NCBI GenBank assembly: GCA_016927495.1
Contig: JAFGMP010000236.1
Location: 1-15,584 of the forward strand
Origin: Candidatus Latescibacterota bacterium
Lineage (GTDB): Bacteria > Latescibacterota > Latescibacteria > Latescibacterales > Latescibacteraceae
DNA: 15,584 nucleotides
Direction: 5' to 3'
Part shown: piece after piece, positions 1,999 through 15,584 of the stretch
Numbering within the stretch: position 1 is the stretch's first letter
Layout: each line of letters opens with the position of its first letter
Translations under genes and position numbers: made by a program
The notes under the pieces: generated by a model
What the model saw: the letters and a program-made list of their open reading frames with translations, nothing else
Told to the model about the DNA's origin: nothing
Database searches by the model: none

Positions 1999-2011
1999 AT
2001 TCTCACACCTT

Positions 2012-2890
2012 TTAGATGATAACTATGTTCTGAGGAATTACCAGGCCTTTAATTTCGACACGTCTGTAACCATCACCATATACAGGATCAATATAATTCG
2101 GTATCGGTTCGGATGTTTTTGAACGCAATGTCATTTCAATTTCCCTTATATCATAAATCTCATCAGGTTCCGGCTCTGTAATCCATGAGCCATCTTTCAT
2201 ATTGAACCGAATCTGAAAGTCTTCAACATCCCCAAGAAGAATTTGCGGATCATATGCCTGATGTTTTAGCATTAAATTTATTCTGCCTTCATCGTCCGTA
2301 TCGACATAAAAAGTAAGATGAGTAACAACCTGTATCGAACTGCCTGTATTATAAACATGGTCAAGTTGATTGTCATCATTCCAGGGCAGCGATGCATCAT
2401 GCCACAGTGTGGTTGAGTTTTTATTTGTAACTATAAATATTTCCGTAAATGTGCCATCAGAGATTACACACAGATCTCCTGTTTCAATTTCATCCGTGGA
2501 ATTACATTTAATCTGATCACCTTCACTTGCCATATTCTGGGTTGTTGTCACCGTGACTGCTTTGAAACTACCCATGATTGTTAATGAATCAGGGCTATCA
2601 TCAACACCATCGACAGCTTCTATCACAGCCCATCCGCTTGTAGGTGGTACTCCATTACCTGCCAATCTCACATGGTCATAAAGGAAATTCATAGCCCACC
2701 GTAATTCCTGCTGCATTTCGGATTCCTGACGTTTAACACTAAAACGTGTAACCTGATCAGCCATGAACTGAAACATTAACACTGCGAGTATTGAACCTAT
2801 GGTCATAGCGACCAGAAGTTCCGCAATAGTCATACCCTTTTCATTGTTACGAAAACGAGGTCTATTTATACCAATCAATTTTTTTTGCAT
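2012..2890 (-). CDS. PilW-like type IV pilus minor pilin (prepilin-type N-terminal cleavage/methylation domain)
   Basis: Leader MQKKLIGINRPRFRNNEKG, then MTIAELLVAMTIGSILAVL (G-1, E+5), then QVTRFSVKRQESEMQQELRWAMNFLYDHVRLAG, which is typical of PilW. The ORF track starts at an in-frame GTG at 2902. I prefer the ATG at 2890, which has a GGGGAG about 11 nt upstream. Confidence 0.6.
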   Translation of the reverse strand: MQKKLIGINRPRFRNNEKGMTIAELLVAMTIGSILAVLMFQFMADQVTRFSVKRQESEMQQELRWAMNFLYDHVRLAGNGVPPTSGWAVIEAVDGVDDSPDSLTIMGSFKAVTVTTTQNMASEGDQIKCNSTDEIETGDLCVISDGTFTEIFIVTNKNSTTLWHDASLPWNDDNQLDHVYNTGSSIQVVTHLTFYVDTDDEGRINLMLKHQAYDPQILLGDVEDFQIRFNMKDGSWITEPEPDEIYDIREIEMTLRSKTSEPIPNYIDPVYGDGYRRVEIKGLVIPQNIVII

Positions 2891-2929
2891 TACGGCATTC
2901 ACTCCCCAAAATTTAACCGAATAATGAAG

Positions 2930-3340
2930 TTAGTTGCTCTGATCGATACATACCGATGTAAGCGTAACTGTCTCAAGATTTCCAGTTGTACTCTCCCATT
3001 GAACTTTGGATGTAATTAACTTAGACCTTGGTATGGGATTCAGGTCATCTATTGTCCAAAACTGGTAGAAAACCCCGTTTGAATCACCGGTCGCGTTTAC
3101 CGGGTTCAGAGGATTCTCATAAGAGTTTTCTGCAAGATTTGGGTTCTCGTAGCCATCCGTCAAAAGTTGTTCAATTTTATTTTGAGCAAGCAAGACAGCC
3201 TGTGTGTGACGCTGGCTGTGAAAATTCCTTTGTACAATTTCCGATATTATCGAACCGACAATTCCAATTCCCACAACAAGAATCACCGAGGCCATTATCA
3301 CTTCGATCAGAGTGAAACCTTTTTCAGAGTTGTATTTCAT
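2930..3340 (-). CDS. PilV-like type IV pilus minor pilin
   Basis: N-terminus MKYNSEKGFTLIEVIMASVILVVGIGIV is a class III prepilin signal (G|FTLIE). TQAVLLAQNKIEQL follows, as in PilV. The start overlaps the upstream gene's stop as ATGA (3337-3340). Confidence 0.65.
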   Translation of the reverse strand: MKYNSEKGFTLIEVIMASVILVVGIGIVGSIISEIVQRNFHSQRHTQAVLLAQNKIEQLLTDGYENPNLAENSYENPLNPVNATGDSNGVFYQFWTIDDLNPIPRSKLITSKVQWESTTGNLETVTLTSVCIDQSN

Positions 3341-3822
3341 AAGTTTCTCTCCCGTATCCTGCCGGTAAGATAGTTTAATTCAACTTTTGTCGAATCTATC
3401 GAACTGTTAGTAATTATTATAGTCCCAGTCATTTCACCTCCTGTTAAACAGGATTTTTCAAGTTGTCCGAATTCATTAAATATGACAAGCCAATCCTCAA
3501 AATTATTCTCACTAATGGAAATTCCTGATTCAAGACTGTAACCGGCACCCCTGATTTCATTTGCACCTTCAGGATCACGAATGATATAAAAGTTACCGCT
3601 TCCGCCCTCATCGAATTGAACACCGTACGGTTCCGCTTCATTTACAGCCTTCATTCTGGCAGTGTAAAGTGATGCGGTCACCGTTGCAGTACTTGTGCGA
3701 AGTTTATCCTTTTTGAATACAAGATTAAGTGATGGTACCGCCAAACCTGCCATAATACCAATAACAACCATGACAATCATTAATTCAACGAAAGAAAAAC
3801 CGGATTCATTTGGCTTCATCAT
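3337..3822 (-). CDS. FimT/FimU/GspH-like minor pilin (pseudopilin)
   Basis: N-terminus MMKPNESGFSFVELMIVMVVIGIMAGLAVPSL has the prepilin cleavage/methylation motif (G|FSFVE). The following region, LNLVFKKDKLRTSTATVTASLYTARMKAV, resembles the GspH/FimT family. It is the first gene of the pilin operon and has a GAGAG upstream. Confidence 0.65.
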   Translation of the reverse strand: MMKPNESGFSFVELMIVMVVIGIMAGLAVPSLNLVFKKDKLRTSTATVTASLYTARMKAVNEAEPYGVQFDEGGSGNFYIIRDPEGANEIRGAGYSLESGISISENNFEDWLVIFNEFGQLEKSCLTGGEMTGTIIITNSSIDSTKVELNYLTGRIRERNL

Positions 3823-4190: not shown

Positions 4191-5102
4191 ATGATCGCAG
4201 CAATCGGTATATCGGTACTCGATACGATAATGGTGATGGACGGTTTTAAATCCGCTGAGGGATCGTATCACTGTGAGAAACTTATCATTGAAGGCGGCGG
4301 TATGGCTGCAACCGCCCTTTGTACGGCTTCAAAGCTTGGTTCGCAAACACGTCTGTTTTCAAGGATTGGAAACGATGTATTCGGCAAACGGCTGCTGGAA
4401 GAGCTGAGAGATTTCGGGGTTGACATTTCGGGGACAATAACGCTAAAAAACAGAAATACTACCGCTTCTGTTGTGTTTGTCGATTTAAATACCGGAGAAA
4501 AACAATTTTATTCGGAATGGGATAAATCCGCATACATAGATTCCTGCTCACTTAATGTCAATTTGCTCGAAGGTGTTAAAATCATGCTTGTGGACGGACA
4601 TTGGACAGAAGGAGCATATGAGGGTCTTGTATGGGCCCGCGCACAGGAAATTCCTGTAGTTGCCGATTTTAAAAGAAAGTATAATGGCATCGAAAAATTA
4701 TTTCCCTTCATCGATTATTTCATCATACCGATGTTTTTTGCCGAAGAAATAACCGGAGAAAAAAAAACGGATCGAATGCTTCATAAACTTACCGAGCTGC
4801 AGCCGGGCATCCCGGTTATAACTTGCGGAGTTCAGGGAGGAGCATATATCGTCGAAAATGATATCAAACGTTACAAGGCATTTCCTATAAAAGCAGTTGA
4901 TTCAACAGGAGCGGGTGACGCTTTCCATGGGGCATTTTGCCATTTCATTTCCCATGGTGTAGAACTGTCCCGCTGTCTGGAATTATCTTCTGCTGTTGGC
5001 GCACTCAACTGTCGTGCCCACGGTGGTAGATCTGCTCTTCCGTCACGAGAAGAACTAAAGGTTTTTCTTAAAAATCATAATGTGGATCCGGAATTTCCAT
5101 AA
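4191..5102 (+). CDS. pfkB/ribokinase-family carbohydrate kinase
   Basis: An N-terminal beta-strand plus GG motif (IGISVLDTIMV...EGGGMAATALCTASKLG) and a C-terminal anion-hole/catalytic motif DSTGAGDAFHGAF (DTxGAGD) are diagnostic of the ribokinase/pfkB superfamily. Length is 303 aa. Confidence 0.8.
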   Translation: MIAAIGISVLDTIMVMDGFKSAEGSYHCEKLIIEGGGMAATALCTASKLGSQTRLFSRIGNDVFGKRLLEELRDFGVDISGTITLKNRNTTASVVFVDLNTGEKQFYSEWDKSAYIDSCSLNVNLLEGVKIMLVDGHWTEGAYEGLVWARAQEIPVVADFKRKYNGIEKLFPFIDYFIIPMFFAEEITGEKKTDRMLHKLTELQPGIPVITCGVQGGAYIVENDIKRYKAFPIKAVDSTGAGDAFHGAFCHFISHGVELSRCLELSSAVGALNCRAHGGRSALPSREELKVFLKNHNVDPEFP

Positions 5103-5629: not shown

Positions 5630-7114
5630 TCAGACAAACCGCAGACTCCCTGCTATCGCCAGACGTCTGATTTTACAGAAATTAATCGGTGATGTGACGC
5701 CCTCACCGGTAGGAGTTGCGATTGTGAAAGCCATATACGCTTCGCCATCATCAGGACCGTCACCCTGATTACTGTAGCCGTTTGCCACCACAATTGTTGT
5801 ATTCATTGCTTTGGCAAAAGTTGTAATACGATCCATGTCTTTCGAATGAATGAGCGCCGTATGTCGATACCCATGTTCTGCTTCCAGACAACACTGTAAA
5901 CCGTCATCGAAATCTTTAACCCTGACAATAGGAAGAAGCGGCATCATCTGTTCTTCTTTTACTAACAGATTATCCTTGTCCGTTTCACCGAAAAGGAGAC
6001 GTGTACCCTCGGGAATGTTTAACTTCACAAGATCGGCAAGATAACTGGTGCTTCTGCCCACCATCTCACGATTAAGTACATGACCGCCTTTTTCGTTTGA
6101 AATAAAAGCTTTTTTGGTCAACAGGTCCATATGAATACTTTCGATTTTTACAGCGCCGGCTTTTTCCATCGCCATCATAAACCTGTCAAAAACGGATTCT
6201 ACAACAAAGACCTCTTTTTCAGCGATACAGAGGAGATTATTATCAAACGAAGCGCCTCTGATAATATCCCGTGCGGCTTTTTCAATATTGGCTGTTTCAT
6301 CGACCAGAACCGGCGGATTTCCGGGACCTGCGGCTATCACCTTTTTATCGGTGGCCATAGCAGCTTTAACAACACCCGGTCCTCCGGTTATCGACAATAA
6401 CGCGACATCAGGATGGTTGAACATGCTATTCGCCGTCTCGATTGTCGGATTCTCCACACAGGTAATAAGGTTTTCCGGAAAACCTCCCGCAACTATAGCT
6501 TTATGGAATATCTGCAGAGCATAGGCGCTTATTTTTTTTGCTCCGGGGTGAGGATTGAAAATTACAGTGTTACCCCCGGCAAGCATAATGATCGCGTTGT
6601 TGACCAACGTGGGAACCGGATGCGTGGACGGAGTTATTGCTCCTATTATCCCGAATGGCGCAAATTCCTCGATCGTGACGCCGGTTTCTCCCGACCATGA
6701 CCGTGAAACAAGATTCTCGGTACCGGGTGAATTTTTTGCGCAGTTTCTGTGTTTTAAAATCTTGTCTCTGATGTTCCCCATGCCGGTTTCTTCGAAAGTC
6801 ATCTTGCTGAATTCTTCTGCATAATCCAAAGTGACCCTGCGCAGGATACCGATGAGACGTTCACGTTCTCTGACACCAAATTTATTAAATTCAAAAAATG
6901 CTCTTTTGGATGCTGCAATTGCATCTTCCATACGGTCGAATACACCATCTTTGCCGCGTAAACCGGCCGATGATGCAACTGGTCTCATGGATTGTGGCGA
7001 TAAAGATGGTGTTACTGCACCCGATCCGGCTTTGGGTAGCGCCGTTCCGGACGTTTTTGCCACCGATGCAACAACAGATTCAACTATGCTTCTGATTTGT
7101 TGTTCGTCAATCAT
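5630..7114 (-). CDS. CoA-acylating aldehyde dehydrogenase (EutE/PduP family) with N-terminal encapsulation peptide
   Basis: The ALDH fold starts at GVFDRMEDAIAASKRAF. The catalytic Cys lies in FDNNLLCIAEKE. A ~55-aa N-terminal extension (amphipathic helix IDEQQIRSIVESVVASV plus an S/P/A/G-rich linker) is typical of BMC-targeted AldDH. AAGAGG lies 8 nt upstream of the ATG. Confidence 0.9.
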   Translation of the reverse strand: MIDEQQIRSIVESVVASVAKTSGTALPKAGSGAVTPSLSPQSMRPVASSAGLRGKDGVFDRMEDAIAASKRAFFEFNKFGVRERERLIGILRRVTLDYAEEFSKMTFEETGMGNIRDKILKHRNCAKNSPGTENLVSRSWSGETGVTIEEFAPFGIIGAITPSTHPVPTLVNNAIIMLAGGNTVIFNPHPGAKKISAYALQIFHKAIVAGGFPENLITCVENPTIETANSMFNHPDVALLSITGGPGVVKAAMATDKKVIAAGPGNPPVLVDETANIEKAARDIIRGASFDNNLLCIAEKEVFVVESVFDRFMMAMEKAGAVKIESIHMDLLTKKAFISNEKGGHVLNREMVGRSTSYLADLVKLNIPEGTRLLFGETDKDNLLVKEEQMMPLLPIVRVKDFDDGLQCCLEAEHGYRHTALIHSKDMDRITTFAKAMNTTIVVANGYSNQGDGPDDGEAYMAFTIATPTGEGVTSPINFCKIRRLAIAGSLRFV

Positions 7115-7140: not shown

Positions 7141-7413
7141 TTACACCATCTGTTCCATGTCTTCATGCGGGCTTGCAATAACCTGTGTGGCAACAACTTC
7201 TCCTACACGGGCTGCGGCTTCGGTTCCGGCCTCAACTGCCGCTTTTACTGCAGCGACATCACCCCTGACCATAACCGCAATATATCCGCTTCCCGTTTTT
7301 TTGTAGCCCTGAAGACTCACCGAAGCGGCTTTGAGCATTGCATCAGCGCCTTCCACTGCGGCTATGAAACCTCTTGTCTCTATAAATCCTAATGCTCTTC
7401 CTGTAACTGCCAT
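7141..7413 (-). CDS. BMC-H hexameric shell protein (Pfam00936, PduA/EutM-like)
   Basis: MAVTGRALGFIETRGFIAAVEGADAMLKAASVSL...GDVAAVKAAVEAG is a canonical single BMC domain. AGGAGG lies 5 nt upstream. Confidence 0.9.
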   Translation of the reverse strand: MAVTGRALGFIETRGFIAAVEGADAMLKAASVSLQGYKKTGSGYIAVMVRGDVAAVKAAVEAGTEAAARVGEVVATQVIASPHEDMEQMV

Positions 7414-7438: not shown

Positions 7439-8218
7439 CTATTGATTGTTGAGTTCCTTCATGATTTTTTCCGTTATTTCCGTGACAATATCTTCGTACT
7501 CCGATTTTGTGCTTAGTTCACAGCTTTCAGTCCCCGTGCATGTACCGCAATTCATGCATGCGCTGCCGCCGATTTTTATACCGAACTGATCACGAATCTC
7601 TTCGAGTTTCTTTACATTTTGCGTGCTGATCTGTTTCATTCCGCCAAGCTGATGAGCTGCCAGAGATATTATGGCAAAATGTTCCACACTCTCCATCTTA
7701 TAATAAGCCTCCATTACGTCTTTACCCAAAGTCATTGCTCCATGATTAGCAAGAAGAATGGCGTCATGACATAGTACCAGATCTTTTATAGAATCGGATA
7801 ATTCCGTTGTGGATGGAGTCCCATATTGGGCCAGCGGAATAGAACCCAGAGAAATTATTATCTCAGGTAATGTTTTAAAATCCAACGGGATATTGGCTAC
7901 CGCATAACCCGTGCAAACCGGCGGATGGGCATGAACAACAGAGCCGATATCATCACGCTGACGATACGCCTCGATATGAATTTTACTTTCGGATGAAGGT
8001 TTCATATACCCGCTCCGAACATTACCGTCCATATCGATCTTCACAAGCATATCAGGTGACATAAAACCTTTCGATACACCGGTTGGCGTGGTTATTATAT
8101 TCGTATCATCGAGTTTCATGCTGATATTACCGTCATTCGAGGCAACCCAACCTTTTAACCAGACACGTCTGCCAACCTCACATATCTGTTCCCGTATTTC
8201 TTTTTCTCGATTATTCAT
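7439..8218 (-). CDS. Class II (AraD/FucA-type, metal-dependent) aldolase with C-terminal Cys cluster and C-terminal encapsulation peptide
   Basis: FucA-like motifs are present: NDGNIS, KPSSES (the catalytic Glu position), HAHPP and ANHG (metal His ligands). The C-terminal ~45 aa read GGSACMNCGTCTGTESCELSTKSEYEDIVTEITEKIMKELNNQ, a CxxCxxCx5C cluster followed by an amphipathic helix. Confidence 0.85.
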   Translation of the reverse strand: MNNREKEIREQICEVGRRVWLKGWVASNDGNISMKLDDTNIITTPTGVSKGFMSPDMLVKIDMDGNVRSGYMKPSSESKIHIEAYRQRDDIGSVVHAHPPVCTGYAVANIPLDFKTLPEIIISLGSIPLAQYGTPSTTELSDSIKDLVLCHDAILLANHGAMTLGKDVMEAYYKMESVEHFAIISLAAHQLGGMKQISTQNVKKLEEIRDQFGIKIGGSACMNCGTCTGTESCELSTKSEYEDIVTEITEKIMKELNNQ

Positions 8219-8291: not shown

Positions 8292-9479
8292 TTACCGAGT
8301 ATCGCTAACTACTTTTACAGTCTCACGGGCAACAATAATTTCTTCATTCGTATCAAGGACAAGCGCTGCAATCTTCGATCCTTCAGCATCGATACGTTCG
8401 CTGTTAGCCTCATTCGCGCTTTTGTCAAGTTTGAATCCCAGAAATTCCAGTGAAGTGAGGATCTCCGACCGCAGAGCACTGTCTTTCTGACCGGTTCCTC
8501 CGGTAAAACAAACAGCATCTACACCGCCCATGAATAAAATATATGCACCCATATAGAACTTGATATCATAAATAAACTTGTCACGGGCAAGCTGCGCTTG
8601 TTTGCTCCCCTTTCTGATGGCTTCAATTACATCCCTCATATCTCCTGACGTTCCGGAAAGACCCTTGAGTCCACCGTTCGATCCCAGTTCTCTATACGCA
8701 TCTTCAAGACTTATACCTTTTTTCTTCATAATGTACGGAACAATAAACGAATCCATATCACCGACACGTTTGGATTGAATAACACCCGTCTGTGTGCTGA
8801 AACCCATAGATGTATCTATAGCAACTCCGTCTTTAAACGCACATACCGAGGATGATCCCCCGAGGTGACACGCAATAACTTTATGATTTTTCAGATCGAG
8901 TTTCAGAATACGAACAGTTTCTCCGGTAACAAATCTCAATGATGCGCCATGATAGCCGTATTTACGGACACCATATTTTTCAAACCACTCAACTGGAGTG
9001 CCATAAACCTGGGCATATTCCGGCCTGTTAATATGAAATCCCGGTTCGAATACACCCACCAGCGGTTTTTCAGGTAACAGATCTTTAAACATCCTTATCG
9101 CTTCAAGGTATGGAGGATTATGAGCCGGCGCGATGTCGCTGTATTCATCCATTGCCGCAATAACTTTTTTTGTCAACAGTACCGAACCGTTTTGCTCTCC
9201 TGCCTGCACGGTTTTAAATCCTACCGCATCGATTTCTGACAAATCGTTTATAATTTCCGATGTCAGAAATTCGAGCCCCCGCCTGACCGCTTCCTTCTGA
9301 TTAAGTACCGGCTTTTCTTCATCGATGATAATGTCTCCCGAACCACGGTAATAGGTGCCATGCGCATTATCCGATCCTACACGTTCGATATGGACATGTG
9401 CGATAATGCTTTCAGTCTCCATATCGATGAACTGGAATTTGAATGAAGTCGATCCTATATTACAAACTATAACTTTCAT
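8292..9479 (-). CDS. ackA: Acetate/propionate kinase (AckA family)
   Basis: N-terminus MKVIVCNIGSTSFKFQF (the ASKHA fold beta1 / phosphate-1 motif). Length is 395 aa. Internal motifs HLGGSSSVCAF and FTGGTG are typical of acetate kinases. Confidence 0.9.
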   Translation of the reverse strand: MKVIVCNIGSTSFKFQFIDMETESIIAHVHIERVGSDNAHGTYYRGSGDIIIDEEKPVLNQKEAVRRGLEFLTSEIINDLSEIDAVGFKTVQAGEQNGSVLLTKKVIAAMDEYSDIAPAHNPPYLEAIRMFKDLLPEKPLVGVFEPGFHINRPEYAQVYGTPVEWFEKYGVRKYGYHGASLRFVTGETVRILKLDLKNHKVIACHLGGSSSVCAFKDGVAIDTSMGFSTQTGVIQSKRVGDMDSFIVPYIMKKKGISLEDAYRELGSNGGLKGLSGTSGDMRDVIEAIRKGSKQAQLARDKFIYDIKFYMGAYILFMGGVDAVCFTGGTGQKDSALRSEILTSLEFLGFKLDKSANEANSERIDAEGSKIAALVLDTNEEIIVARETVKVVSDTR

Positions 9480-9553: not shown

Positions 9554-9820
9554 TCACATTGCCACATCATCAATAATAGCCAGAATATTAGCGTCGGAAC
9601 CGGTCATATCAGGGTGAAATGCCATTGCCGATTCCGGACCACCTTCATACAGGACAATCTGGCCTTCTCCGCATCCTATATAATCAAAAGTGATTATCAG
9701 GTTACCTGGTTTTTTTATATCACGGATATCTATTTCTTCCATTACCCTGAGCTTTTTGCCCGCAAGCGCAGGAAGCGTTTTGTTCAATACCAAATTACCG
9801 CGTACTTTGCCGGTTTCCAT
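9554..9820 (-). CDS. BMC-P pentameric vertex protein (EutN/PduN/CcmL family), paralog 3
   Basis: METGKVRGNLVLNKTLPALAGKKLRVM...IGCGEGQIVLYEGG matches the BMC-P fold pattern. Length is 88 aa. Confidence 0.8.
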   Translation of the reverse strand: METGKVRGNLVLNKTLPALAGKKLRVMEEIDIRDIKKPGNLIITFDYIGCGEGQIVLYEGGPESAMAFHPDMTGSDANILAIIDDVAM

Positions 9821-9886: not shown

Positions 9887-10621
9887 CTATATGCCGGTGA
9901 AACCTGAAATTATTGCTTCGGGATTCGATATCGATCCAAGCACAATCACATTAGCGCCTATATCGATCCTTGCGGCACGGGCATCATACGTGTCTCTGCA
10001 GTGGACGGCACGAACAGCGCTGTTTCTGTTTGCATGAATCGGAGCCTCCATTCCCGTGTTTTCAAGACAGACTCCGAAATGAGCGCCGCCTGAAACTACC
10101 ATATCCGCAAGCTTTTTTACATTTGCTTCATACGACCCGCCGGTAATTTCTTTTATCGTCAAATGTTTTGCTGCAAGAATATTCTTCAAAATTGAACCAT
10201 CACCCTTAAAATCCGGAGCAATAACGAGCGCAACAGAAATGGTACCCTGTATTGAAGAAACATTCCCAGATTTATTACCTGCTGCACCATCAATACGGTT
10301 GATAGTTATTTTCTTTTCTTTGGCAAAATCCAGCGCCAATGGCGTTATAACAGCCTTTTTTGTTATGGTGACGGTTTGCCCTTTTACTGCTTCGAGATCT
10401 TTCTGAGTAATAACCTGTTTCCCCGACATATCAGCGTTACCCGCTGCAGGTGCTTCAACAGGCAGTGTCGGACGAATCGATACCTGAGCCGGAACAGGTG
10501 ATTGTTGTGCCGGAGCTTGACTGCCGCTTGTTTCGGCAGACGAACTTACCGGAATACCCCGCTGGTTAAGAACTCTTTTTACTTCTGTAATAATCGCTTC
10601 GACAAGTTCATCGTGATTCAT
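9887..10621 (-). CDS. Encapsulation-peptide-tagged RpiB/LacAB-family sugar-phosphate isomerase-like protein (EP + linker + small unassigned module + RpiB-like domain)
   Basis: The N-terminus MNHDELVEAIITEVKRVL is an amphipathic helix, followed by a ~45-aa S/A/P/Q-rich linker. The middle module reads VITQKDLEAVKGQTVTITKKAVITPLALDFAKEKKITI. The C-terminal ~115 aa align to the RpiB core: GVCLENTGMEAPIHANRNSAVRAVHCRDTYDARAARIDIGANVIVLG versus RpiB [47 protein letters not shown]. Glu sits at the catalytic Cys/Glu position. The N-terminal GSDHAG motif has diverged to APDFKG. Confidence 0.6.
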   Translation of the reverse strand: MNHDELVEAIITEVKRVLNQRGIPVSSSAETSGSQAPAQQSPVPAQVSIRPTLPVEAPAAGNADMSGKQVITQKDLEAVKGQTVTITKKAVITPLALDFAKEKKITINRIDGAAGNKSGNVSSIQGTISVALVIAPDFKGDGSILKNILAAKHLTIKEITGGSYEANVKKLADMVVSGGAHFGVCLENTGMEAPIHANRNSAVRAVHCRDTYDARAARIDIGANVIVLGSISNPEAIISGFTGI

Positions 10622-10645: not shown

Positions 10646-10903
10646 TTAACGCTCAACTATATCATCTATAATTCCGCATAACCATGCTCTTTGAGGAACA
10701 ATGGGATCATTATGCATTTCCTGCGATCCTATACCATCCCAATTGAGAATAACTCTGTCACCTTTACCTGATGCGGTAAAATCAACCACAACCTGCGGCC
10801 TGCCCTGGGGCTGTCCCTTTGCATCAAGTACCTGAACAATCATTAGCTTTTTCCCATTAAGGCAGGGATGTTTGATTGTAGAAGTAACACTTCCAAGTAC
10901 CAT
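10646..10903 (-). CDS. BMC-P pentameric vertex protein (EutN/PduN/CcmL family), paralog 2
   Basis: MVLGSVTSTIKHPCLNGKKLMIVQVLD...ASGKGDRVILNWDG matches the BMC-P pattern. The ORF track begins at an in-frame TTG at 10921 (MRLREG-). The ATG at 10903 gives the canonical M-x-x-G-x-V-x-S-T N-terminus. The true start is ambiguous. Confidence 0.75.
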   Translation of the reverse strand: MVLGSVTSTIKHPCLNGKKLMIVQVLDAKGQPQGRPQVVVDFTASGKGDRVILNWDGIGSQEMHNDPIVPQRAWLCGIIDDIVER

Positions 10904-11034
10904 TCCCTCTCTCAACCGCAAACCTCATACTAAAAAATTAAACCATAAAATTCGTTACCTGTTTCATTTCGAAAACAACTTGTAATGTATCTCTTCTGTA
11001 ATAACTTGTATTCATCCTGTCTGCAATCAAATAT

Positions 11035-11583
11035 TTATACGAGATGCGGTATCAGTTCCGGATTCACCGACGGAATAACCACCGAAGCAATGAGCACTCC
11101 TCTGTCTTTAACTCCTTCAAGCGCAGCATCCATTGCCGACTGGACATTCTGGACAGAACCGGTAACGATCACATATGATTTTCCGGCAAGTCCCTTACCG
11201 AGCCTGAGTTCGATTATTTCCACATCGGAGGTTTTCACCATCGTATCGGCGCCCTCGATTGTTGCCGTCATCGTCATCGTTTCAAAAACACCGATTGAAG
11301 CGCCGATATTAACAATATCAGGACTGTAAAACGCCGAAAGAACTTTGTCATCGATACGAGGCAAAATGAGCGAGTCCAGAAAATTGAAATCGGCAATTCC
11401 CTTTGCAAGATCAATCGCTTCCCGGACAGCTCCGACATCTCCTGTAAATAATATCTGATAACGCCCGGGACAGTTTGGAGCGGAAAGCAAAATATCAATC
11501 GCCGTATTTTTGGAAATAAGATCGGCGGCCTGTATACCTTTTCCGACACTTATATATTCGAGAAAACCAATACATTTACTCAT
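11035..11583 (-). CDS. BMC-T tandem-domain shell protein, PduT-like with conserved pore cysteine (putative [4Fe-4S] site)
   Basis: Two BMC domains (IGFLEYISVGKGIQAADLISKNTAIDIL and IGVFETMTMTATIEGADTMVKTSDVEIIEL) sit in 182 aa. LLSAPNCPGRYQILFTGDVGAVREAI aligns with Salmonella PduT [27 protein letters not shown], including Cys38. The start overlaps the PduS stop as ATGA. Confidence 0.85.
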   Translation of the reverse strand: MSKCIGFLEYISVGKGIQAADLISKNTAIDILLSAPNCPGRYQILFTGDVGAVREAIDLAKGIADFNFLDSLILPRIDDKVLSAFYSPDIVNIGASIGVFETMTMTATIEGADTMVKTSDVEIIELRLGKGLAGKSYVIVTGSVQNVQSAMDAALEGVKDRGVLIASVVIPSVNPELIPHLV

Positions 11584-12956
11584 GAACCGGCACCCCTGAT
11601 TACAATATATTCATTCGTAACTTCTTCTACATGGCCATGTATTGATGCATGTACTCGCGCCCCCATTCCATTTTCAGGAATTTCACCGATCAGATCACCG
11701 GTTTTTACACTCTCCCCCTGTTTTACCACCGGTTTTGCCGGAGCACCTATATGCTGAAGAAGCGGGATACGCACCTTTCCGGGTATGAACGAACCAAGTG
11801 GTTCGAATTCTGTGTGTCCGAGATACCGTTCGAGGCCAAGTTTACGGGCATATGTTAAAGCCGGAAGTTTTCGATAATTAAACATTGCACCATCATACTG
11901 AGGCATCTTTGAAAAATCATACTTCAATCCCGACCGTTTTATAGCATCGCGAACCATAGCATATACTTTGTTGGGAGCCAGGCCGAAAATGCATGCGTAT
12001 TGTTCACAAACACCACACTGGCAGCACAAAATTGATTCGAATACCATCTGTTTTGTGAATTCATCGAGGTCATGCGCTTCAATTTTCCTTATAATCTCAT
12101 CGACAAACCATGAGTATGACATCATTTTTGCCGGTGAAATGGCATGGCCTATAGCGTTTCTCGGGCAAAGTATAGTACATTCCTGACAGGTGCAGCACAT
12201 TTTTGCCCGCTGTTTCGTAATACGGACAGGTTCTTTTTTTAATCGAACCATCGTGTGGTCTTTCGGCAATACTATTACACCCCCAAATCGCTTATCGATA
12301 ACATCGTCCGTATCACCGATCGGCCCCATTATAGGTCCGCCCAAAATGATCTCGTAATCAGTTACAGTTACTCCGCCCGCAAATGCTATAAGGTCTTTTA
12401 CAGGCGTTCCTATCGGAACCTCAACGGTAACCGGACGGGCTACTTCCCCACCGATGGTAACATTTCGTGAAGTAACGACCTTACCGTCAAGCGCATCGGA
12501 AATCTGCTTGAATGTAGCCACATTGCTAACCGTCACACCAATCATAAAAGGCAAACCGCCCTGTGGCACCGTCTTTCCGGTCACATCACGGATCAGGACA
12601 AGCTCATCGCCTGCGGGATAAGAATTTTCGAGAATACCGATTTCGAATTCCGGTTTACCTGATATTACCTGAGAAACAGCATCGATGGCAGCGGTATTTT
12701 TATTTTTGATACCGATGATTCCCTTTCGGGCGCCAACCTGTTCCATCGCCGCTTCCATACCGCGTATGAAACTGCCGGGATTTTTTTCCATGAGATGTTT
12801 ATCGGCTTCGAGAATAGGTTCACATTCGGCGCCGTTAGCAATAACGGTGTCGACAGCATTTCCCAATTTAACATGAGTGGGAAATCCCGCACCGCCAGCC
12901 CCTACTATTCCGGCATCACGAACAATTGAAACAATATCGACGGCAGTCCGGCTCAC
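11580..12956 (-). CDS. PduS-like (RnfC/NuoF-like) NAD(H)- and FMN-binding iron-sulfur oxidoreductase
   Basis: N-terminus MSRTAVDIVSIVRDAGIVGAGGAGFPTHVKL closely matches PduS (GVVGAGGAGFPAHVKL). Two ferredoxin-like Cys clusters are present: CCTCQECTILCP and CCQCGVCEQYAC. The gene starts at GTG and overlaps the upstream BMC-P stop as GTGA. Confidence 0.85.
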   Translation of the reverse strand: MSRTAVDIVSIVRDAGIVGAGGAGFPTHVKLGNAVDTVIANGAECEPILEADKHLMEKNPGSFIRGMEAAMEQVGARKGIIGIKNKNTAAIDAVSQVISGKPEFEIGILENSYPAGDELVLIRDVTGKTVPQGGLPFMIGVTVSNVATFKQISDALDGKVVTSRNVTIGGEVARPVTVEVPIGTPVKDLIAFAGGVTVTDYEIILGGPIMGPIGDTDDVIDKRFGGVIVLPKDHTMVRLKKEPVRITKQRAKMCCTCQECTILCPRNAIGHAISPAKMMSYSWFVDEIIRKIEAHDLDEFTKQMVFESILCCQCGVCEQYACIFGLAPNKVYAMVRDAIKRSGLKYDFSKMPQYDGAMFNYRKLPALTYARKLGLERYLGHTEFEPLGSFIPGKVRIPLLQHIGAPAKPVVKQGESVKTGDLIGEIPENGMGARVHASIHGHVEEVTNEYIVIRGAGS

Positions 12957-13273
12957 TCTTTCTCACCTTTCCGATACACAAAATTGGTGTCAACCGACAC
13001 TGAATCGACAATCCCGATTATCAGACCATCCGTAGGTATACTCGCCGTTGTATCTGTCATACGGGCGGAAGATCCCTGTACGACAAGCACCAATTCACCC
13101 CGTCCGGCGCCAATCGGATCGTTTACTATCAGTGTGGTTCCGGTCGGCAGAATTTTACTGCCTTTAGGATCATTTGTAATATTCTGAACCTCGATAAGTA
13201 GAAACTTCTGCCCGATCAGTCGGTCAATCTTCACTGACGACACTATTTCACCGATAACTTTACCGACTACCAC
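12953..13273 (-). CDS. BMC-P pentameric vertex protein (EutN/PduN/CcmL family), paralog 1
   Basis: VVGKVIGEIVSS...GSSARM...DGLIIGIVDSVSVDTNFVYRK aligns with CcmL/EutN, including the C-terminal DTVSRDNYLLYSK-like segment. GTG start, with GAGGT 8 nt upstream. Confidence 0.85.
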   Translation of the reverse strand: MVVGKVIGEIVSSVKIDRLIGQKFLLIEVQNITNDPKGSKILPTGTTLIVNDPIGAGRGELVLVVQGSSARMTDTTASIPTDGLIIGIVDSVSVDTNFVYRKGEKE

Positions 13274-13430
13274 AAGTCAACCTCATTTTTCATTTTGTAT
13301 ACTTGTTGTAAGTAAATTTTTTTACATCAGACAAATACATTGTCCAAAACTAATAACCATGGTAAATCAAATATCTTCGATTCTTATTCTTTAAACACAG
13401 ATTCATCCTTGAATCATGTGCTTAAATCGG

Positions 13431-13793
13431 TTACACTCCGGGGCTTTTCTTCTGATCACCCGCAGGTGAAGCTTTTGTCGTTTTCGGTTTGGGAGCATTT
13501 GCCTTTTCTGCCGGTTTTTCTGCCTCCACGATGCCGATAAAAGCTTCCATTTCCTTATGAGGGCTCGCTATAACCTGAGCAGCAACGACCTTGCCAATAG
13601 CCGCGGCAGAACCTGCGCCTGCATCGACAGCAGCTTTTACTGCCGCCACATCTCCGGTCAGAATGATCATAACAAGTCCACTGCCTGCACGCATCTGAGT
13701 CAGAAGGGAAACATTGGCCGCTTTCAGAGCCGAATCGGCAGCCTCCACCGCGGCAACAAATCCCTGTGTCTCAATGAAACCCAAAGCTTGCAT
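13431..13793 (-). CDS. BMC-H shell protein with ~35-aa Lys/Pro/Ala-rich C-terminal extension
   Basis: The BMC domain is MQALGFIETQGFVAAVEAADSALKAANVSL...GDVAAVKAAVDAG. The tail reads EAEKPAEKANAPKPKTTKASPAGDQKKSPGV. AGGAG lies 6 nt upstream. Confidence 0.85.
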   Translation of the reverse strand: MQALGFIETQGFVAAVEAADSALKAANVSLLTQMRAGSGLVMIILTGDVAAVKAAVDAGAGSAAAIGKVVAAQVIASPHKEMEAFIGIVEAEKPAEKANAPKPKTTKASPAGDQKKSPGV

Positions 13794-13908
13794 GTGTATC
13801 TCCTATGTAATAAGTATCATAATTCCTGAATCATAAAAAGTTTTACCCGAATTTTATTCTTATATTTCACAATCCAGTCTTAATAGCGTTCAGCCAATTC
13901 AGATGCTT

Positions 13909-14175
13909 TTATTTGAAAAGTCCATCCAGTTCTTCATGAGGACGCGGAATAATGTGCGATGAAATGAACTCTCCTACATTTTTCGCCACTTCAGTGCCGG
14001 ATTCCACGGCTGCTTTGACCGAACCTACGTCGCCGGTGATAACTGTGGTTACAAAACCACCACCGATGCCAACCTGTTTGAGCAGTTCAACGCTGGCGCT
14101 CTTCAACATCGCATCGGTTGCAATTGCGAGTCCTGTGAATCCTCTTGTTTCAAGAAGTCCTATTGCTTTTCTCAT
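13909..14175 (-). CDS. BMC-H hexameric shell protein
   Basis: MRKAIGLLETRGFTGLAIATDAMLKSASVELL...GDVGSVKAAVESG is a canonical BMC domain. GGAGG lies 10 nt upstream. Confidence 0.9.
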   Translation of the reverse strand: MRKAIGLLETRGFTGLAIATDAMLKSASVELLKQVGIGGGFVTTVITGDVGSVKAAVESGTEVAKNVGEFISSHIIPRPHEELDGLFK

Positions 14176-14216: not shown

Positions 14217-14945
14217 TTAATCTTTTATTATCTCGACATCTTTGCCGCAGCCAATATCCGCGACATTTCCCTCGTCCGTATCAAGATGTACTTCGAGCCG
14301 TACATTATCGGATACCCGCACCACCATATTTTCAAACGTTACCGCATTAGGCCCTCCAACCCTGAGCTTAACTTTATCTCCATTTTTCAGCCCGAAATAT
14401 GCTGCCTCTTTTGGATTCATGTGAACATGCCTCATGGCACGGATACAACCCTCGTCAAGTTCGACAACACCTTTTGGGCCAATTATTGTTATAGGCGCAG
14501 AACCCTTTATATCACCGGAAATTCTTAATGGTGCATCGATACCTAGAAAAATAGCATCAGTTTTGGCCAGTTCAACCTGAGTTCTATCTCTCAAAGGCCC
14601 GAGAATCCTTACTTTTTCAAGAAGCCTCGTTTTGGGTCCGATTAGCGCCACTGTCTGTTTCTCAGCATGAGTGCCGGGTTGATATAATTCCCGTAAATGA
14701 TCGAGTTCAGCACCGGGACCGAATAGTTTTTCAAGATGTTCTTTGCAGAGATGTACATGACGAACCGAAACTCCAACCGGTATTCTTTTCGGATTAATCG
14801 AATCATATACAACATTTTCCGTTTCTTTTTTTTCCGGTTCTTTTGATGGTACCGTTAGGTTAATTCGTTCAAATACTTCCCGAACAATCCGATTGAGTAT
14901 ATCCTGGTCAATCGAAGGTGTCCGGCTTACATTTGTGTTATTCAT
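14217..14945 (-). CDS. pduL: PduL-type phosphotransacylase (Pfam06130) with N-terminal encapsulation peptide
   Basis: Two PduL repeats with His-rich metal sites are present (IPVGVSVRHVHL and IRAMRHVHMN). The N-terminal amphipathic helix DQDILNRIVREVFERI plus a linker precedes the catalytic domain, as in encapsulated PduL. Confidence 0.85.
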   Translation of the reverse strand: MNNTNVSRTPSIDQDILNRIVREVFERINLTVPSKEPEKKETENVVYDSINPKRIPVGVSVRHVHLCKEHLEKLFGPGAELDHLRELYQPGTHAEKQTVALIGPKTRLLEKVRILGPLRDRTQVELAKTDAIFLGIDAPLRISGDIKGSAPITIIGPKGVVELDEGCIRAMRHVHMNPKEAAYFGLKNGDKVKLRVGGPNAVTFENMVVRVSDNVRLEVHLDTDEGNVADIGCGKDVEIIKD

Positions 14946-15255
14946 ACTTTCTAACCTTTGAATTGAGCGAGATAGTATTTCATGATTTATCGAAAATATG
15001 CTCTACAGTGAAATAATCCACTTGAAATTCTCGTGAGTTTTCTGTCGAATTACTTAACCAATGTCTAATATATGGTATTGCCTGAAATTTTACAATAAAT
15101 AAGGATGCAAAAATTTAAAAAAATATAACTATATTTACTGGACAGAGATAAAGAAAGAGTCTATTATATACAAAACGCAATGGGAAATTACTCTTGCAGT
15201 AAAATTAATTTGTATTATTATATATAATGTTATTCTACTATAATGGGTGCAAAAT
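14946..15255. promoter_or_regulatory. AT-rich divergent intergenic region upstream of the BMC operon (minus) and of a secreted-protein gene (plus); probable operon promoter/regulatory region; TATAAT at 15223-15228 on plus strand
   Basis: The 310-nt non-coding spacer is more than 70% AT. It lies directly upstream of the first BMC gene (pduL). No specific operator was recognised. Confidence 0.25.
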
Positions 15256-15584
15256 ATGAGACATGTGCGTAAAAAAATTATTAAAATTACTTTCAGCAGG
15301 GTTTTATTTAACATATTCATACTTTTTTTTACATTTTTTTTCCTGGCTGAAAAGTCAGTCGCTCAACAGGATACAATCAGCATATTTGAACTGACCGGCA
15401 ACAATACAGATATATTCTCAAAAGAATGGAATCATATTCTGCCGGAAAATCAAAAGGCATATACAAACTATACCATCGAAAAAAATAATAATGAATTATA
15501 TCTTAAACTACGTTCCGGCGGTACCGGTTCACTGCTTGAAAAAAAAGTCGACAACATCAATGTCGCAAAATTTCCCATAATGGA
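15256..15584 (+). CDS. Partial CDS (5' end), secreted/exported protein with N-terminal signal peptide; continues beyond window
   Basis: ATG at 15256. The open frame runs to the window end with no stop. MRHVRKKIIKITFSRVLFNIFILFFTFFFLAEKSVAQQ has a Lys-rich n-region, a hydrophobic core and an AxA-like cleavage site. It is absent from the ORF track because it is incomplete. Confidence 0.45.
   Translation, partial: MRHVRKKIIKITFSRVLFNIFILFFTFFFLAEKSVAQQDTISIFELTGNNTDIFSKEWNHILPENQKAYTNYTIEKNNNELYLKLRSGGTGSLLEKKVDNINVAKFPIM

Follow-up and report, generated by a model that had tools for sequence, protein, structure and literature searches.

A module shared with EutQ in an RpiB-like microcompartment protein of Latescibacterota: a putative shell-to-core linker

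Introduction

RpiB-like proteins that carry an encapsulation peptide have been known from bacterial microcompartment loci since 2014, and biochemical data followed in 2024. In this respect, the gene considered here is ordinary. It is located in the window, i.e. the whole stretch of 15,584 nucleotides from a Candidatus Latescibacterota bacterium (contig JAFGMP010000236.1) that was analysed, and it raises the question of whether its product is an encapsulated isomerase or rather a structural component built on an isomerase fold. The preliminary description of this DNA regarded an encapsulated isomerase step of this kind as uncharacterised for any microcompartment. This has to be corrected, because the locus type was described by Axen, Erbilgin and Kerfeld in 2014, who listed the RpiB-like protein in the 'SPU-like' locus of Latescibacteria (PMC4207490), and because an SPU RPI was purified in 2024. 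The 2014 study only lists the protein, and neither its degenerate site, nor its truncation, nor its middle module is described there. What is added here is a folded module of about 45 amino acids inside a stretch that was earlier described as an unstructured linker, and the finding that RpiB-like proteins contain this module not only in SPU-like but also in SPU-type and PVM-type loci.

Gene neighbourhood and locus type

All genes given with coordinates in the following are encoded on the minus strand. The first operon gene seen in the window encodes a PduL-type phosphotransacylase with an N-terminal encapsulation-peptide-like helix (14217..14945). Next comes a shell and redox block (11035..14175), which contains two BMC-H genes (13909-14175 and 13431-13793), a BMC-P gene (12953-13273) and the genes for a PduS/RnfC-like flavo-FeS protein (11580-12956) and a tandem-BMC protein (11035-11583). 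The gene for the RpiB-like protein has a BMC-P (EutN/CcmL pentamer) gene directly upstream (10646..10921) and another BMC-P gene directly downstream (9554..9820). Further downstream are the genes for an acetate-kinase family protein (8292..9479), a class II aldolase (PF00596; 7439..8218), a third BMC-H protein (7141..7413) and an acylating aldehyde dehydrogenase (AldDH), a core enzyme that again starts with an encapsulation-peptide-like helix (5630..7114). In total, three BMC-H, one tandem-BMC and three BMC-P proteins are encoded. The aldolase carries a C-terminal encapsulation peptide (7451-7501); it is the signature enzyme of the locus and, by analogy to the SPU RPI-DERA complex, a candidate binding partner of the RpiB-like protein. 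The two genes had been described as adjacent, but they are separated by a BMC-P and the acetate kinase gene, and the RpiB-like gene is instead flanked by two BMC-P genes.

This arrangement, in which one gene is sandwiched between two BMC-P genes, recurs in loci L001, L002, L011, L013 and L015, and within the Latescibacterota the gene order is fully conserved down to 43% identity. The conserved neighbourhood (window, L001 and L002) includes both a PfkB sugar kinase and the class II aldolase; neither of them reached an equivalog cut-off in NCBIfam, and no substrate was assigned.

The locus combines features of two established types. As in SPU loci, AldDH, a pfam02502 RPI, a BMC-P triplet, a PduS-like protein and a phosphotransacylase (PTAC) are encoded. 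The signature enzyme differs, because SPU loci encode a DeoC-type DERA (PF01791/pfam01791), which was found neither in the window nor in the syntenic loci L001 and L002; these contain the PF00596 class II aldolase instead. An assignment as SPU locus in the Sutter 2021 / 2024 definition was rejected for this reason. With PVM loci, the window shares the class II aldolase with its C-terminal encapsulation peptide, AldDH, PTAC, acetate kinase and BMC-P genes in more than the usual number. PVM loci are restricted to Planctomycetes and Verrucomicrobia. A DeoR regulator and a lactate/malate-dehydrogenase-type reductase are both absent from the window, L001 and L002, where a PduS-like protein is present instead, and the missing DeoR and Ldh-type genes together with the different phylum led us to reject a PVM assignment as well. 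The window is an instance of the Latescibacteria 'SPU-like' locus type (Axen et al. 2014, PMC4207490), a name that is explained by the replacement of DERA by a PF00596 aldolase.

Domain architecture of the RpiB-like protein

The protein is encoded by an ATG-started open reading frame of 244 amino acids plus stop codon (9887..10621), and its sequence is identical to the NCBI MAG protein 'RpiB/LacA/LacB family sugar-phosphate isomerase [Candidatus Latescibacteria bacterium]'. A plus-strand reading of the same region was rejected because the frame is full of stop codons. The proposed succession of N-terminal helix, linker, module and RpiB/LacAB-like domain was recovered in full, and these parts are conserved in about 75 homologue clusters with 42-79% identity. 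The family alignment comprises 32 sequences with a mean column identity of 54%. Scanning a genome collection with family-specific peptide patterns retrieved seven loci from Latescibacterota or MAGs, a count that covers close relatives. A weak Pfam match of the whole protein to DUF2807 (E 0.049) was treated as noise or at most a lead.

Residues 3-20 (HDELVEAIITEVKRVLNQ; 10562..10615) are helical in the AF2 model, and no other part of the protein reaches their hydrophobic moment (muH 0.53), a value that is attained by 1.2% of shuffled sequences. Within this amphipathic helix, E13, V14 and L18 are invariant in the family alignment. The helix has no counterpart in the non-microcompartment RpiB proteins of E. 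coli and M. tuberculosis, which begin directly at the domain. Its terminal position, the poorly conserved linker that follows and the location of the gene inside a locus of shell genes are all features of encapsulation-peptide cargo. Thus, the earlier reading of the N-terminus as a putative encapsulation peptide is supported by sequence and model, with targeting as the predicted function.

The linker (residues 21-63; 10433..10561) is of low complexity and consists largely of the residues that had been named for it (A8, P7, S7, Q4). It varies in length and sequence across homologues and is modelled with a pLDDT below 50. A second, short disordered linker (residues 112-127; 10241..10288) precedes the C-terminal domain; it is not conserved either and has a pLDDT below 50 at residues 114-123.

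The RpiB-like domain has lost the canonical sugar-phosphate site

The C-terminal domain (residues 128-244; 9890..10240) is a truncated and degenerate version of the RpiB/LacAB fold. The match to PF02502 scores 44.9 bits (gathering score 24.7) but spans only half of the model, positions 38-106 of 138, and the family profile could be aligned to residues 10-118 of T. maritima RpiB. AF2 models the domain with a pLDDT above 90, and the best 45 Foldseek matches in the PDB are all RpiB/LacAB-type folds (best E 2.4e-8), with target-normalised TM-scores of 0.6-0.85 and E-values of 2e-8 to 1e-5 against RpiB/LacAB structures. AF2 and Foldseek agree with the fold assigned in the preliminary description. 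The Rossmann-like fold is common to the window protein, to RpiB of E. coli (1NN4/2VVR) and M. tuberculosis (1USL/2VVO) and to LacA/LacB. Of the RpiB motifs, the window protein retains Asp9, Thr68, Gly69, AAN(K/R) and R-A-x-x-C. It has gained the encapsulation peptide and the module and has lost the phosphate site and the C-terminal helices as well as His10, His99 and Asn100.

The former active site was mapped by comparing the 32 family sequences with RpiB sequences of E. coli and M. tuberculosis that had been verified. The positions concerned are D137/F138 (10208-10213), E187 (10061-10063), T189 (10055-10057) and D220 (9962-9964). The RpiB motif GCDHVG is changed to APDFKG, in line with the replacement reported earlier for the GSDHAG-type motif; Asp9 is kept as Asp137 in 29 of 32 sequences, while the His10 column is occupied by Phe138 in 31 of 32. 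In the His99 column, all 32 sequences have Asp220, and Asn100 is replaced by Ile, Tyr or Phe. Asp9 is thus the only one of the ring-opening and proton-shuttle residues (His99-Asn100, Asp9-His10) that is left. The domain also ends early, lacking about 29 C-terminal residues of RpiB where about 25 had been estimated, and a 4-residue deletion removes Arg110. As a consequence of deletion and truncation, Arg110, Arg133, His134 and Arg137 of the E. coli enzyme and Arg113, Arg137 and Arg141 of the M. tuberculosis enzyme have no equivalent in any of the 32 sequences. His10 of the E. coli and His12 of the M. tuberculosis enzyme are also lost, so that all phosphate-binding residues of both enzymes are absent.

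These data bear directly on the proposal that an aldose-P to ketose-P isomerase operates inside the shell and provides the ketose-phosphate on which the class II aldolase acts. The PF02502 match above the gathering score, the NCBI protein name and the PfkB sugar kinase and aldolase in the conserved neighbourhood are compatible with such a step. The absence of every phosphate ligand, the exchange of His10, His99 and Asn100, the missing C-terminus and the genes that separate the RpiB-like protein from the aldolase argue against it. The NCBIfam scores of about 35 bits, compared to cut-offs of 88-139, point in the same direction (TIGR00689, 35.1 vs 88.3; TIGR01120, 35.4 vs 138.65; NF004051, 40 vs 135). 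Even the SPU RPI has essentially no activity on ribose-5-P, although it retains GSDH, His99 and the Arg residues of the C-terminus. We therefore consider the sugar-phosphate isomerase reading as largely refuted by the sequence data and a role of this kind as highly improbable. The alternative that had been offered, a catalytically dead scaffold, is supported by the map of catalytic residues.

The most conserved parts of the family are the three old active-site loops, P-D137-F138, C185-x-E187-x-T189-G190 and R218-x-D220-x-x-A-N224; H207, R209 and R215 are likewise invariant. This conservation suits a protein-protein interface no better than a still-functional pocket, be it for a ligand, a metal or catalysis, and for the same reason the window protein may have a residual, phosphate-independent activity. 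Glu187 is invariant and occupies the column of the catalytic Cys66 of E. coli RpiB, where a carboxylate could act as base, although SPU RPIs, with Asp in this column, are essentially inactive. In M. tuberculosis RpiB, the catalytic base is also a Glu, which comes from a different position, and the corresponding Glu75 column contains Gly/Ala193 in the family. The previous designation as 'M. tuberculosis RpiB type' is therefore right in chemical terms, in that Glu is present at a general-base position, but wrong in positional terms.

An encapsulated enzyme with a new phosphate-independent chemistry would use Glu187 as base together with Asp220, Asp137 and Thr189 and might isomerise or tautomerise a carbonyl compound that is small or carries no phosphate, e.g. 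a free deoxy-sugar or an alpha-hydroxy-aldehyde such as lactaldehyde or glycolaldehyde released by the aldolase. Such an enzyme would be consistent with the invariant or nearly invariant loops in 32 sequences, with the location of Glu exactly in the Cys66 column, with the confidently retained RpiB fold (AF2, Foldseek) and with the promiscuity of some RpiBs towards unphosphorylated sugars (PMC4207490, PMC11585597). Still, we regard it as doubtful, because both the ring-opening residue His99 and the dimer-contributed C-terminal helices are missing, the activity of SPU RPI is negligible, and no pathway step of the locus obviously needs such an isomerase. Moreover, PVM-type homologues at the same genomic position have lost every pocket residue, which indicates that the common role of the superfamily is not this chemistry.

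The middle module is related to EutQ, EutT, PduM and TIGR02536

Between the two linkers lies a conserved module of about 48 residues (residues 64-111; 10289..10432), which is a putative shell-docking domain. It is predicted to fold as beta-alpha-beta-alpha-beta, with a pLDDT of 74-89 in the full AF2 model and of 89 when modelled alone, and is characterized by the motif [VIL]IT-x2-D ... [IV][IV]TP-x-A-x-D-x-A/L-R/K ... I. The preliminary description had recognized the module as a separate unit but considered it unassignable. The unit is indeed real and conserved, but it can be assigned, because profile comparison identified it as homologous to the N-termini of EutQ and EutT and to the C-termini of PduM and TIGR02536, with a similarity that extends over the whole unit of about 45 residues. 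With a diverse module profile of 54 sequences, hhalign matched EutQ 1-47 with a probability of 89.7% (E 1.8e-6), whereas a first comparison with a narrow profile of the family only had reached a probability of just 20%. EutT 2-48 matched the module profile with an E-value of 5.4e-6. In a control with 58 sequences, the N-termini of EutQ and EutT were the only ones to score, and the other 56 were at E >=0.018. Positions 113-152 of PF15953, the C-terminus of PduM, matched with an E-value of 6e-6 and 26.7 bits (gathering score 27), and the C-terminus of TIGR02536 (positions 161-204) with 30.5 bits. A search of 5.8 billion proteins in a word-indexed collection returned no matches for the 48-residue profile, which is too short for significant E-values there, and the model of the module alone had no significant counterpart among solved structures. 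An E3_binding (PSBD) match in the second half of the module, seen for 4 of 54 members (best E 3e-4), was set aside as noise or a lead only. In the literature searched, we found no paper stating the homology of these modules, although it may have been mentioned elsewhere.

The relationship to EutQ is informative because the H1/H2 region of EutQ (residues 9-41) binds the shell, as reported in 2025, and because shell and cargo separate when eutQ is deleted (PMC12487888). PduM, which contains a signal sequence, contributes to the connection between core and shell (PMC12108088). The shell-binding role tentatively suggested for the middle module earlier thus gains support by analogy to the homologous N-terminal region of EutQ. 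For the window protein, we infer shell binding by extrapolation from an identity to EutQ of about 27%. The docking of the EutQ copy on the shell suggests that one shell-docking domain may be shared by EUT, PDU, SPU and PVM organelles.

The proteins differ in how the module is combined with other parts. EutQ resembles the window protein in its modular build with flexible spacer and globular C-terminal domain, but this domain has acetate kinase activity and is a cupin rather than an RpiB fold. The module is located at the extreme N-terminus of EutQ and not behind a helix and a linker, and EutQ contains an H3/H4 region that binds encapsulation peptides instead of an N-terminal peptide of its own. 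PduM and the TIGR02536 family ('eut_hyp') carry the same module at the C-terminus, behind an encapsulation peptide, and no RpiB-like domain was detected in them. As in the window protein, the signal sequence of PduM is N-terminal, and PduM is needed for a proper core-shell connection. A C-terminal module is also found in some RpiB-like relatives, e.g. in P0113.

RpiB-like proteins in other microcompartments

The closest characterized system is the SPU RPI, e.g. of Chloroflexi bacterium GWB2_54_36 (PMC11585597). It shares with the window protein the PF02502 fold, an encapsulation peptide at the N-terminus, a long spacer and the replacement of the catalytic Cys by a carboxylate (Asp in SPU, Glu in the window protein). 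The region that corresponds to the module was described as an unstructured linker in the 2024 study (PMC11585597), but the SPU-type representatives P0086, P0088, P0092 and P0097 carry the module of about 45 residues, as does the window protein. Differences are seen in the active site, where SPU RPIs have retained GSDH, His99-Asn100 and an Arg/His helix at the C-terminus, while the window protein has APDF and Asp220-Ile and lacks the C-terminal helix. The SPU RPI eluted as a tetramer, showed negligible ribose-5-P isomerase activity and formed a 1:1 complex with the signature aldolase DERA, and the authors proposed a packaging role for this RPI (PMC11585597).

Among 153 representatives of RpiB-like microcompartment proteins, 134 carry the module. 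The Cys66 column contains Asp in 79, Thr in 29, Glu in 13 and Cys in only 4 of them, and His99 is kept in 57 of the 153. Hence, many lineages lose catalytic residues and yet retain encapsulation peptide, module and fold. The loss is complete in the PVM-type loci L011 and L015, where the protein between the two BMC-P genes has the same order of encapsulation peptide, linker, module and RpiB-like domain as the window protein and the same position upstream of a class II aldolase. In contrast to the window protein, these copies are fully degenerate and have no Pfam family on record; Thr or Ala is found at the Cys66 column instead of Glu, and Ala or Val at His99 instead of Asp. Their identity to the window protein is low, with a profile score of about 56 bits.

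Possible function in the microcompartment

As the sugar-phosphate site is lost, a structural tether is more likely than a working sugar-phosphate isomerase, and we propose that the window protein is probably a shell-to-core linker or scaffold that is built on a pseudo-isomerase in an aldolase-type microcompartment of Latescibacterota. The N-terminal helix would join the condensate of cargo with encapsulation peptides (PduL, AldDH and aldolase), the flexible linker would provide reach, and the module of about 48 residues is predicted to dock on shell tiles like its EutQ homologue, the H1/H2 region. By analogy to RpiB enzymes, which form dimers or tetramers, and to the tetrameric SPU homologue, the RpiB-like domain is predicted to provide oligomerisation; a further possible role is binding of the signature aldolase, comparable to that of DERA by SPU RPI. 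The outcome would be a multivalent tether that couples the core with the shell. Oligomeric state, aldolase binding and the lack of catalysis are features that we infer from these comparisons.

The proposed RPI-like linkers, including the unannotated ones of PVM-type loci, are candidates for connecting shell and core in microcompartments of the aldolase type. Confirmation of this role would shed light on how some very widespread, yet least studied, microcompartments are assembled, and the module could then provide engineers with a portable shell-targeting tag.

A structural role is compatible with catalysis, because EutQ is both linker and enzyme, and tethering may therefore coexist with the phosphate-independent chemistry considered above. 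In such a protein, the remodelled pocket with the invariant Glu187 and Asp220 and the near-invariant Asp137 and Thr189 would form a new active site, a combination to which we assign a low probability. As part of the same joint reading, and with equally slim prospects, the pocket could catalyse the phosphate-independent ene-diol isomerisation of the aldehyde product of the aldolase or of a free deoxy-sugar.

The linker role also has to be weighed against that of a non-catalytic subunit of a cargo enzyme, e.g. a chaperone or activator that binds the aldolase or a sensor for small molecules that makes use of the former pocket, in which peptide and module would serve only for its own encapsulation. 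The conserved pocket residues would agree with such a subunit, and so would the stoichiometric RPI-DERA complex of SPU, the natural RPI-DERA fusions and the precedent of LacA (PMC11585597), a non-catalytic partner subunit with RpiB fold in which the catalytic Cys is replaced by a carboxylate, as in the window protein. We nevertheless judge it to be rather improbable, because the kinetics of DERA are unaltered by complex formation with SPU RPI (PMC11585597) and because the EutQ homologue of the module binds the shell and not an enzyme. In addition, the partner enzyme varies between DERA and a class II aldolase, whereas the module and the position between two BMC-P genes are constant.

Genomic context and published relatives

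The gene under study (9887-10621, minus strand, ATG start, 244 residues) lies opposite a plus strand that contains many stops and no open frame in this interval. It is embedded in a minus-strand operon headed by a PduL-type phosphotransacylase gene (14217-14945), followed by two BMC-H genes, a BMC-P gene (12953-13273), and genes for a PduS/RnfC-like flavo-FeS protein (11580-12956) and a tandem-BMC protein (11035-11583). A BMC-P gene directly precedes the target (10646-10921) and another directly follows it (9554-9820), after which come genes for acetate kinase (8292-9479), a class II aldolase (7439-8218), a further BMC-H protein (7141-7413) and, last, an acylating aldehyde dehydrogenase (AldDH; 5630-7114). 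A PfkB sugar kinase gene (4191-5102, plus strand) diverges from the operon, and beyond it lies a type-IV-pilin-like gene cluster (N_methyl, PilX_N; 16-3822, minus strand). Latescibacterota MAGs keep this arrangement in synteny, kinase and pilin genes included, at identities as low as 43%; the kinase and the pilin-like cluster stay with the microcompartment operon at just 43-45% protein identity. The window shows no gene for a DeoR-type regulator; a 61-residue ORF upstream of pduL (15135-15320, minus strand) has no Pfam match.

The gene content matches the "SPU-like" Latescibacteria locus described by Axen et al. 2014 (PMC4207490), and an identical protein is already present in NCBI, from a Latescibacteria MAG, as "RpiB/LacA/LacB family sugar-phosphate isomerase". 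The target is a divergent member of the RPI-like proteins known from microcompartments, and its locus type has been in print since 2014. The SPU-type RPI was studied in 2024 (PMC11585597), so the preliminary description of such a step as uncharacterised in any microcompartment is out of date. SPU RPI carries an N-terminal encapsulation peptide and Asp at the Cys66 position, has negligible ribose-5-P isomerase activity, is a tetramer and binds DERA, the signature aldolase, in a 1:1 complex; its authors suggested that the native function is lost while an importance for packaging remains (PMC11585597).

Two observations concern neighbouring proteins. In the PduS/RnfC-like protein, the RnfC_N barrel-sandwich domain is C-terminal (residues 391-450) and the match to the rnfC model begins only near position 121, so the protein's domain order is permuted relative to RnfC; its gene shares 4 nt with each neighbour (11580-11583 and 12953-12956), an overlap suggestive of translational coupling. 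The BMC-H protein encoded at 13431-13793 ends in a 35-residue Lys/Pro/Ala-rich tail (…EKPAEKANAPKPKTTKASPAGDQKKSPGV; 13434-13538, minus strand), which is absent from the other two BMC-H proteins of the operon.

Architecture and fold

The proposed four-part succession of helix, linker, module and RpiB domain recurs throughout the roughly 75 homologue clusters (42-79% identity) and is borne out by an AlphaFold2 model built on 32 of these homologues. In this model, residues 3-20 form a helix, residues 21-60 and 111-127 are disordered, residues 62-110 form a small beta-alpha-beta-alpha-beta unit (pLDDT 74-89), and residues 129-244 form a compact domain (pLDDT > 90). The hydrophobic moment of the N-terminal 18-mer (0.53) is the maximum in the protein and is reached by 1.2% of shuffles; PduL, AldDH and the aldolase from the same operon have similar terminal helices. 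The C-terminal domain is an RpiB/LacAB fold: PF02502 scores 44.9 bits (gathering score 24.7), residues 10-118 of T. maritima RpiB align with a profile of the family, and all 45 significant Foldseek matches of this domain in the PDB are RpiB/LacAB-type structures.

Loss of canonical RpiB residues

E. coli and M. tuberculosis RpiB reference sequences, verified against the PDB, were aligned with the 32-sequence family. RpiB Asp9 is retained as Asp137 (29/32), while His10 is replaced by Phe138 (31/32), Cys66 by Glu187 and His99 by Asp220 (both 32/32); Thr68 corresponds to Thr/Ser189 and Asn100 to Ile, Tyr or Phe. Arg110 is lost in a four-residue deletion, and Arg133, His134 and Arg137 are absent because the chain stops about 29 residues early. 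The Glu noted at the general base is real but is not of the M. tuberculosis type: the column of the mycobacterial base, Glu75, holds Gly or Ala, and the target Glu therefore replaces Cys66 in situ. None of the RpiB phosphate ligands survives, and the NCBIfam RpiB/LacAB models reach only about 35 bits against cut-offs of 88-139. It is hence very unlikely that the protein, its fold notwithstanding, is a sugar-phosphate isomerase that performs an aldose-P to ketose-P step inside the shell and feeds the aldolase.

A remodelled pocket that is independent of phosphate and holds a ligand or a metal, or acts catalytically, is improbable but deserves more weight, since conservation within the Latescibacterota family is highest in the three loops of the former active site, and H207, R209, R215 and R218 are invariant. 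Such a pocket could coexist with a tethering function, for which EutQ is a precedent.

The middle module

The module, conserved but left unassigned previously, can now be related to EutQ, EutT, PduM and TIGR02536 by profile matches, a family placement that the present analysis adds. In full-length scans, the only non-RpiB matches were to the C-terminal ~40 positions of PduM (PF15953, TIGR04493) and of TIGR02536 "eut_hyp"; the isolated module matched PF15953 with E 6e-6 (26.7 bits, gathering score 27). A profile search of 1.84 billion representatives returned a tight family of 9 clusters and, below a large gap, hundreds of 200-285-residue proteins matching from the module through the RpiB domain. 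Among the top 153 representatives, the module is present in 134: 94 carry it behind an encapsulation peptide and a linker, 24 have it at the very N-terminus and 9 place it after the RpiB domain. It follows a canonical-looking RpiB domain in the relatives P0113, P0126, P0137, P0159, P0162, P0166, P0171 and P0200, an order that mirrors PduM and TIGR02536 and shows the module to be mobile.

A diverse 54-sequence module profile matched E. coli K-12 EutQ residues 1-47 (probability 89.7%, E 1.8e-6). A local control set of 58 sequences combined 28 real proteins with 30 shuffles; EutQ (E 2.6e-6) and residues 2-48 of EutT (E 5.4e-6) were alone in scoring, and the sequence ranked after them reached E 0.018. 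In EutQ, shell binding resides in residues 9-41 (H1/H2) and the binding of cargo encapsulation peptides in residues 62-99, and shell and cargo separate upon EutQ loss (PMC12487888); this 2025 paper makes no mention of PduM, EutT or RPI relatives. PduM, which carries an N-terminal signal sequence, is required for proper core-shell connection (PMC12108088). The matching EutT segment (MKDFITEAWLRANHTLSEGAEIHLPADSRLTPSARELLESRHLRIKFI; E. coli K-12 eutT, 18503-19306 of locus L003, hhalign) suggests from sequence that EutT may dock to the shell as EutQ does.

Modelled alone, the module reaches pLDDT 89, and no specific structural relative was found among solved structures. Its second half (residues ~91-110, ~10292-10351) carries a TP-x-A-x-D-x-A-R-E-x-G-I motif and bears a weak resemblance to the 2-oxoacid dehydrogenase peripheral-subunit-binding domain (Pfam E3_binding; 4 of 54 module sequences, best E 3e-4), a likeness that could reflect convergence or distant homology.

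Degenerate copies and a possible tether

Of the 153 microcompartment representatives, 79 have Asp in the Cys66 column, 29 Thr, 13 Glu and only 4 Cys; 57 retain His99 and 58 retain Asp9-His10. Copies of the SPU type, one of which adjoins a cytidine deaminase gene, look canonical (GSDH, Asp, His-Asn, C-terminal RH..R), whereas many non-SPU lineages have lost these residues in differing ways. Two relatives without a recorded Pfam match are each flanked by a pair of BMC-P genes, with a class II aldolase gene downstream, in PVM-type loci: one (L011, 1498-2337) in a locus with an Ldh-like gene, the other (L015, 10001-10711) with the PVM set of DeoR, PTAC, two BMC-H, acetate kinase and AldDH. Both retain encapsulation peptide, module and RpiB-like domain and are fully degenerate homologues of the target, newly recognised here. 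One further relative occurs as X in the order AldDH, BMC-P, X, BMC-P, and another behind three BMC-P genes and ahead of a PduS-like gene. Encapsulation peptide, module, fold and place among pentamer genes are conserved from system to system; the catalytic residues are not.

On the best-supported reading, the target is probably a tether or scaffold that links shell to core and has a pseudo-isomerase as its framework. Its architecture, fold, residue losses, module homologies and synteny are observed directly; its partners, oligomeric state and lack of catalysis we infer. The encapsulation peptide would join the cargo condensate, the module would dock onto shell tiles, and the RpiB-like domain would supply oligomeric multivalency and possibly bind the aldolase. 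With the module assignment and the PVM-type homologues, the "enigmatic RPI" becomes a candidate linker, a hypothesis open to testing.

The class II aldolase and the substrate

The PfkB kinase and the aldolase both stay below every NCBIfam equivalog cut-off. The best match of the kinase is ribokinase (105 bits, cut-off 300), and those of the aldolase, likewise sub-threshold, are 3-oxo-tetronate-4-P decarboxylase, fuculose-P aldolase and ribulose-1-P aldolase. As the organelle substrate, fucose or rhamnose has been assumed (Youssef et al. 2015). Unusually high Cys content has been described for aldolase linkers (Aussignargues 2015). Here, a C-x2-C-x2-C-x5-C motif (CMNCGTCTGTESC; residues 221-233, 7520-7558, minus strand) lies in the spacer ahead of the C-terminal amphipathic helix (residues 240-256, 7451-7501, minus strand). 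Its N223, C224 and C227 are kept in a PVM-type aldolase of 32% identity, and the motif could be a metal, Fe-S or redox-sensitive site.
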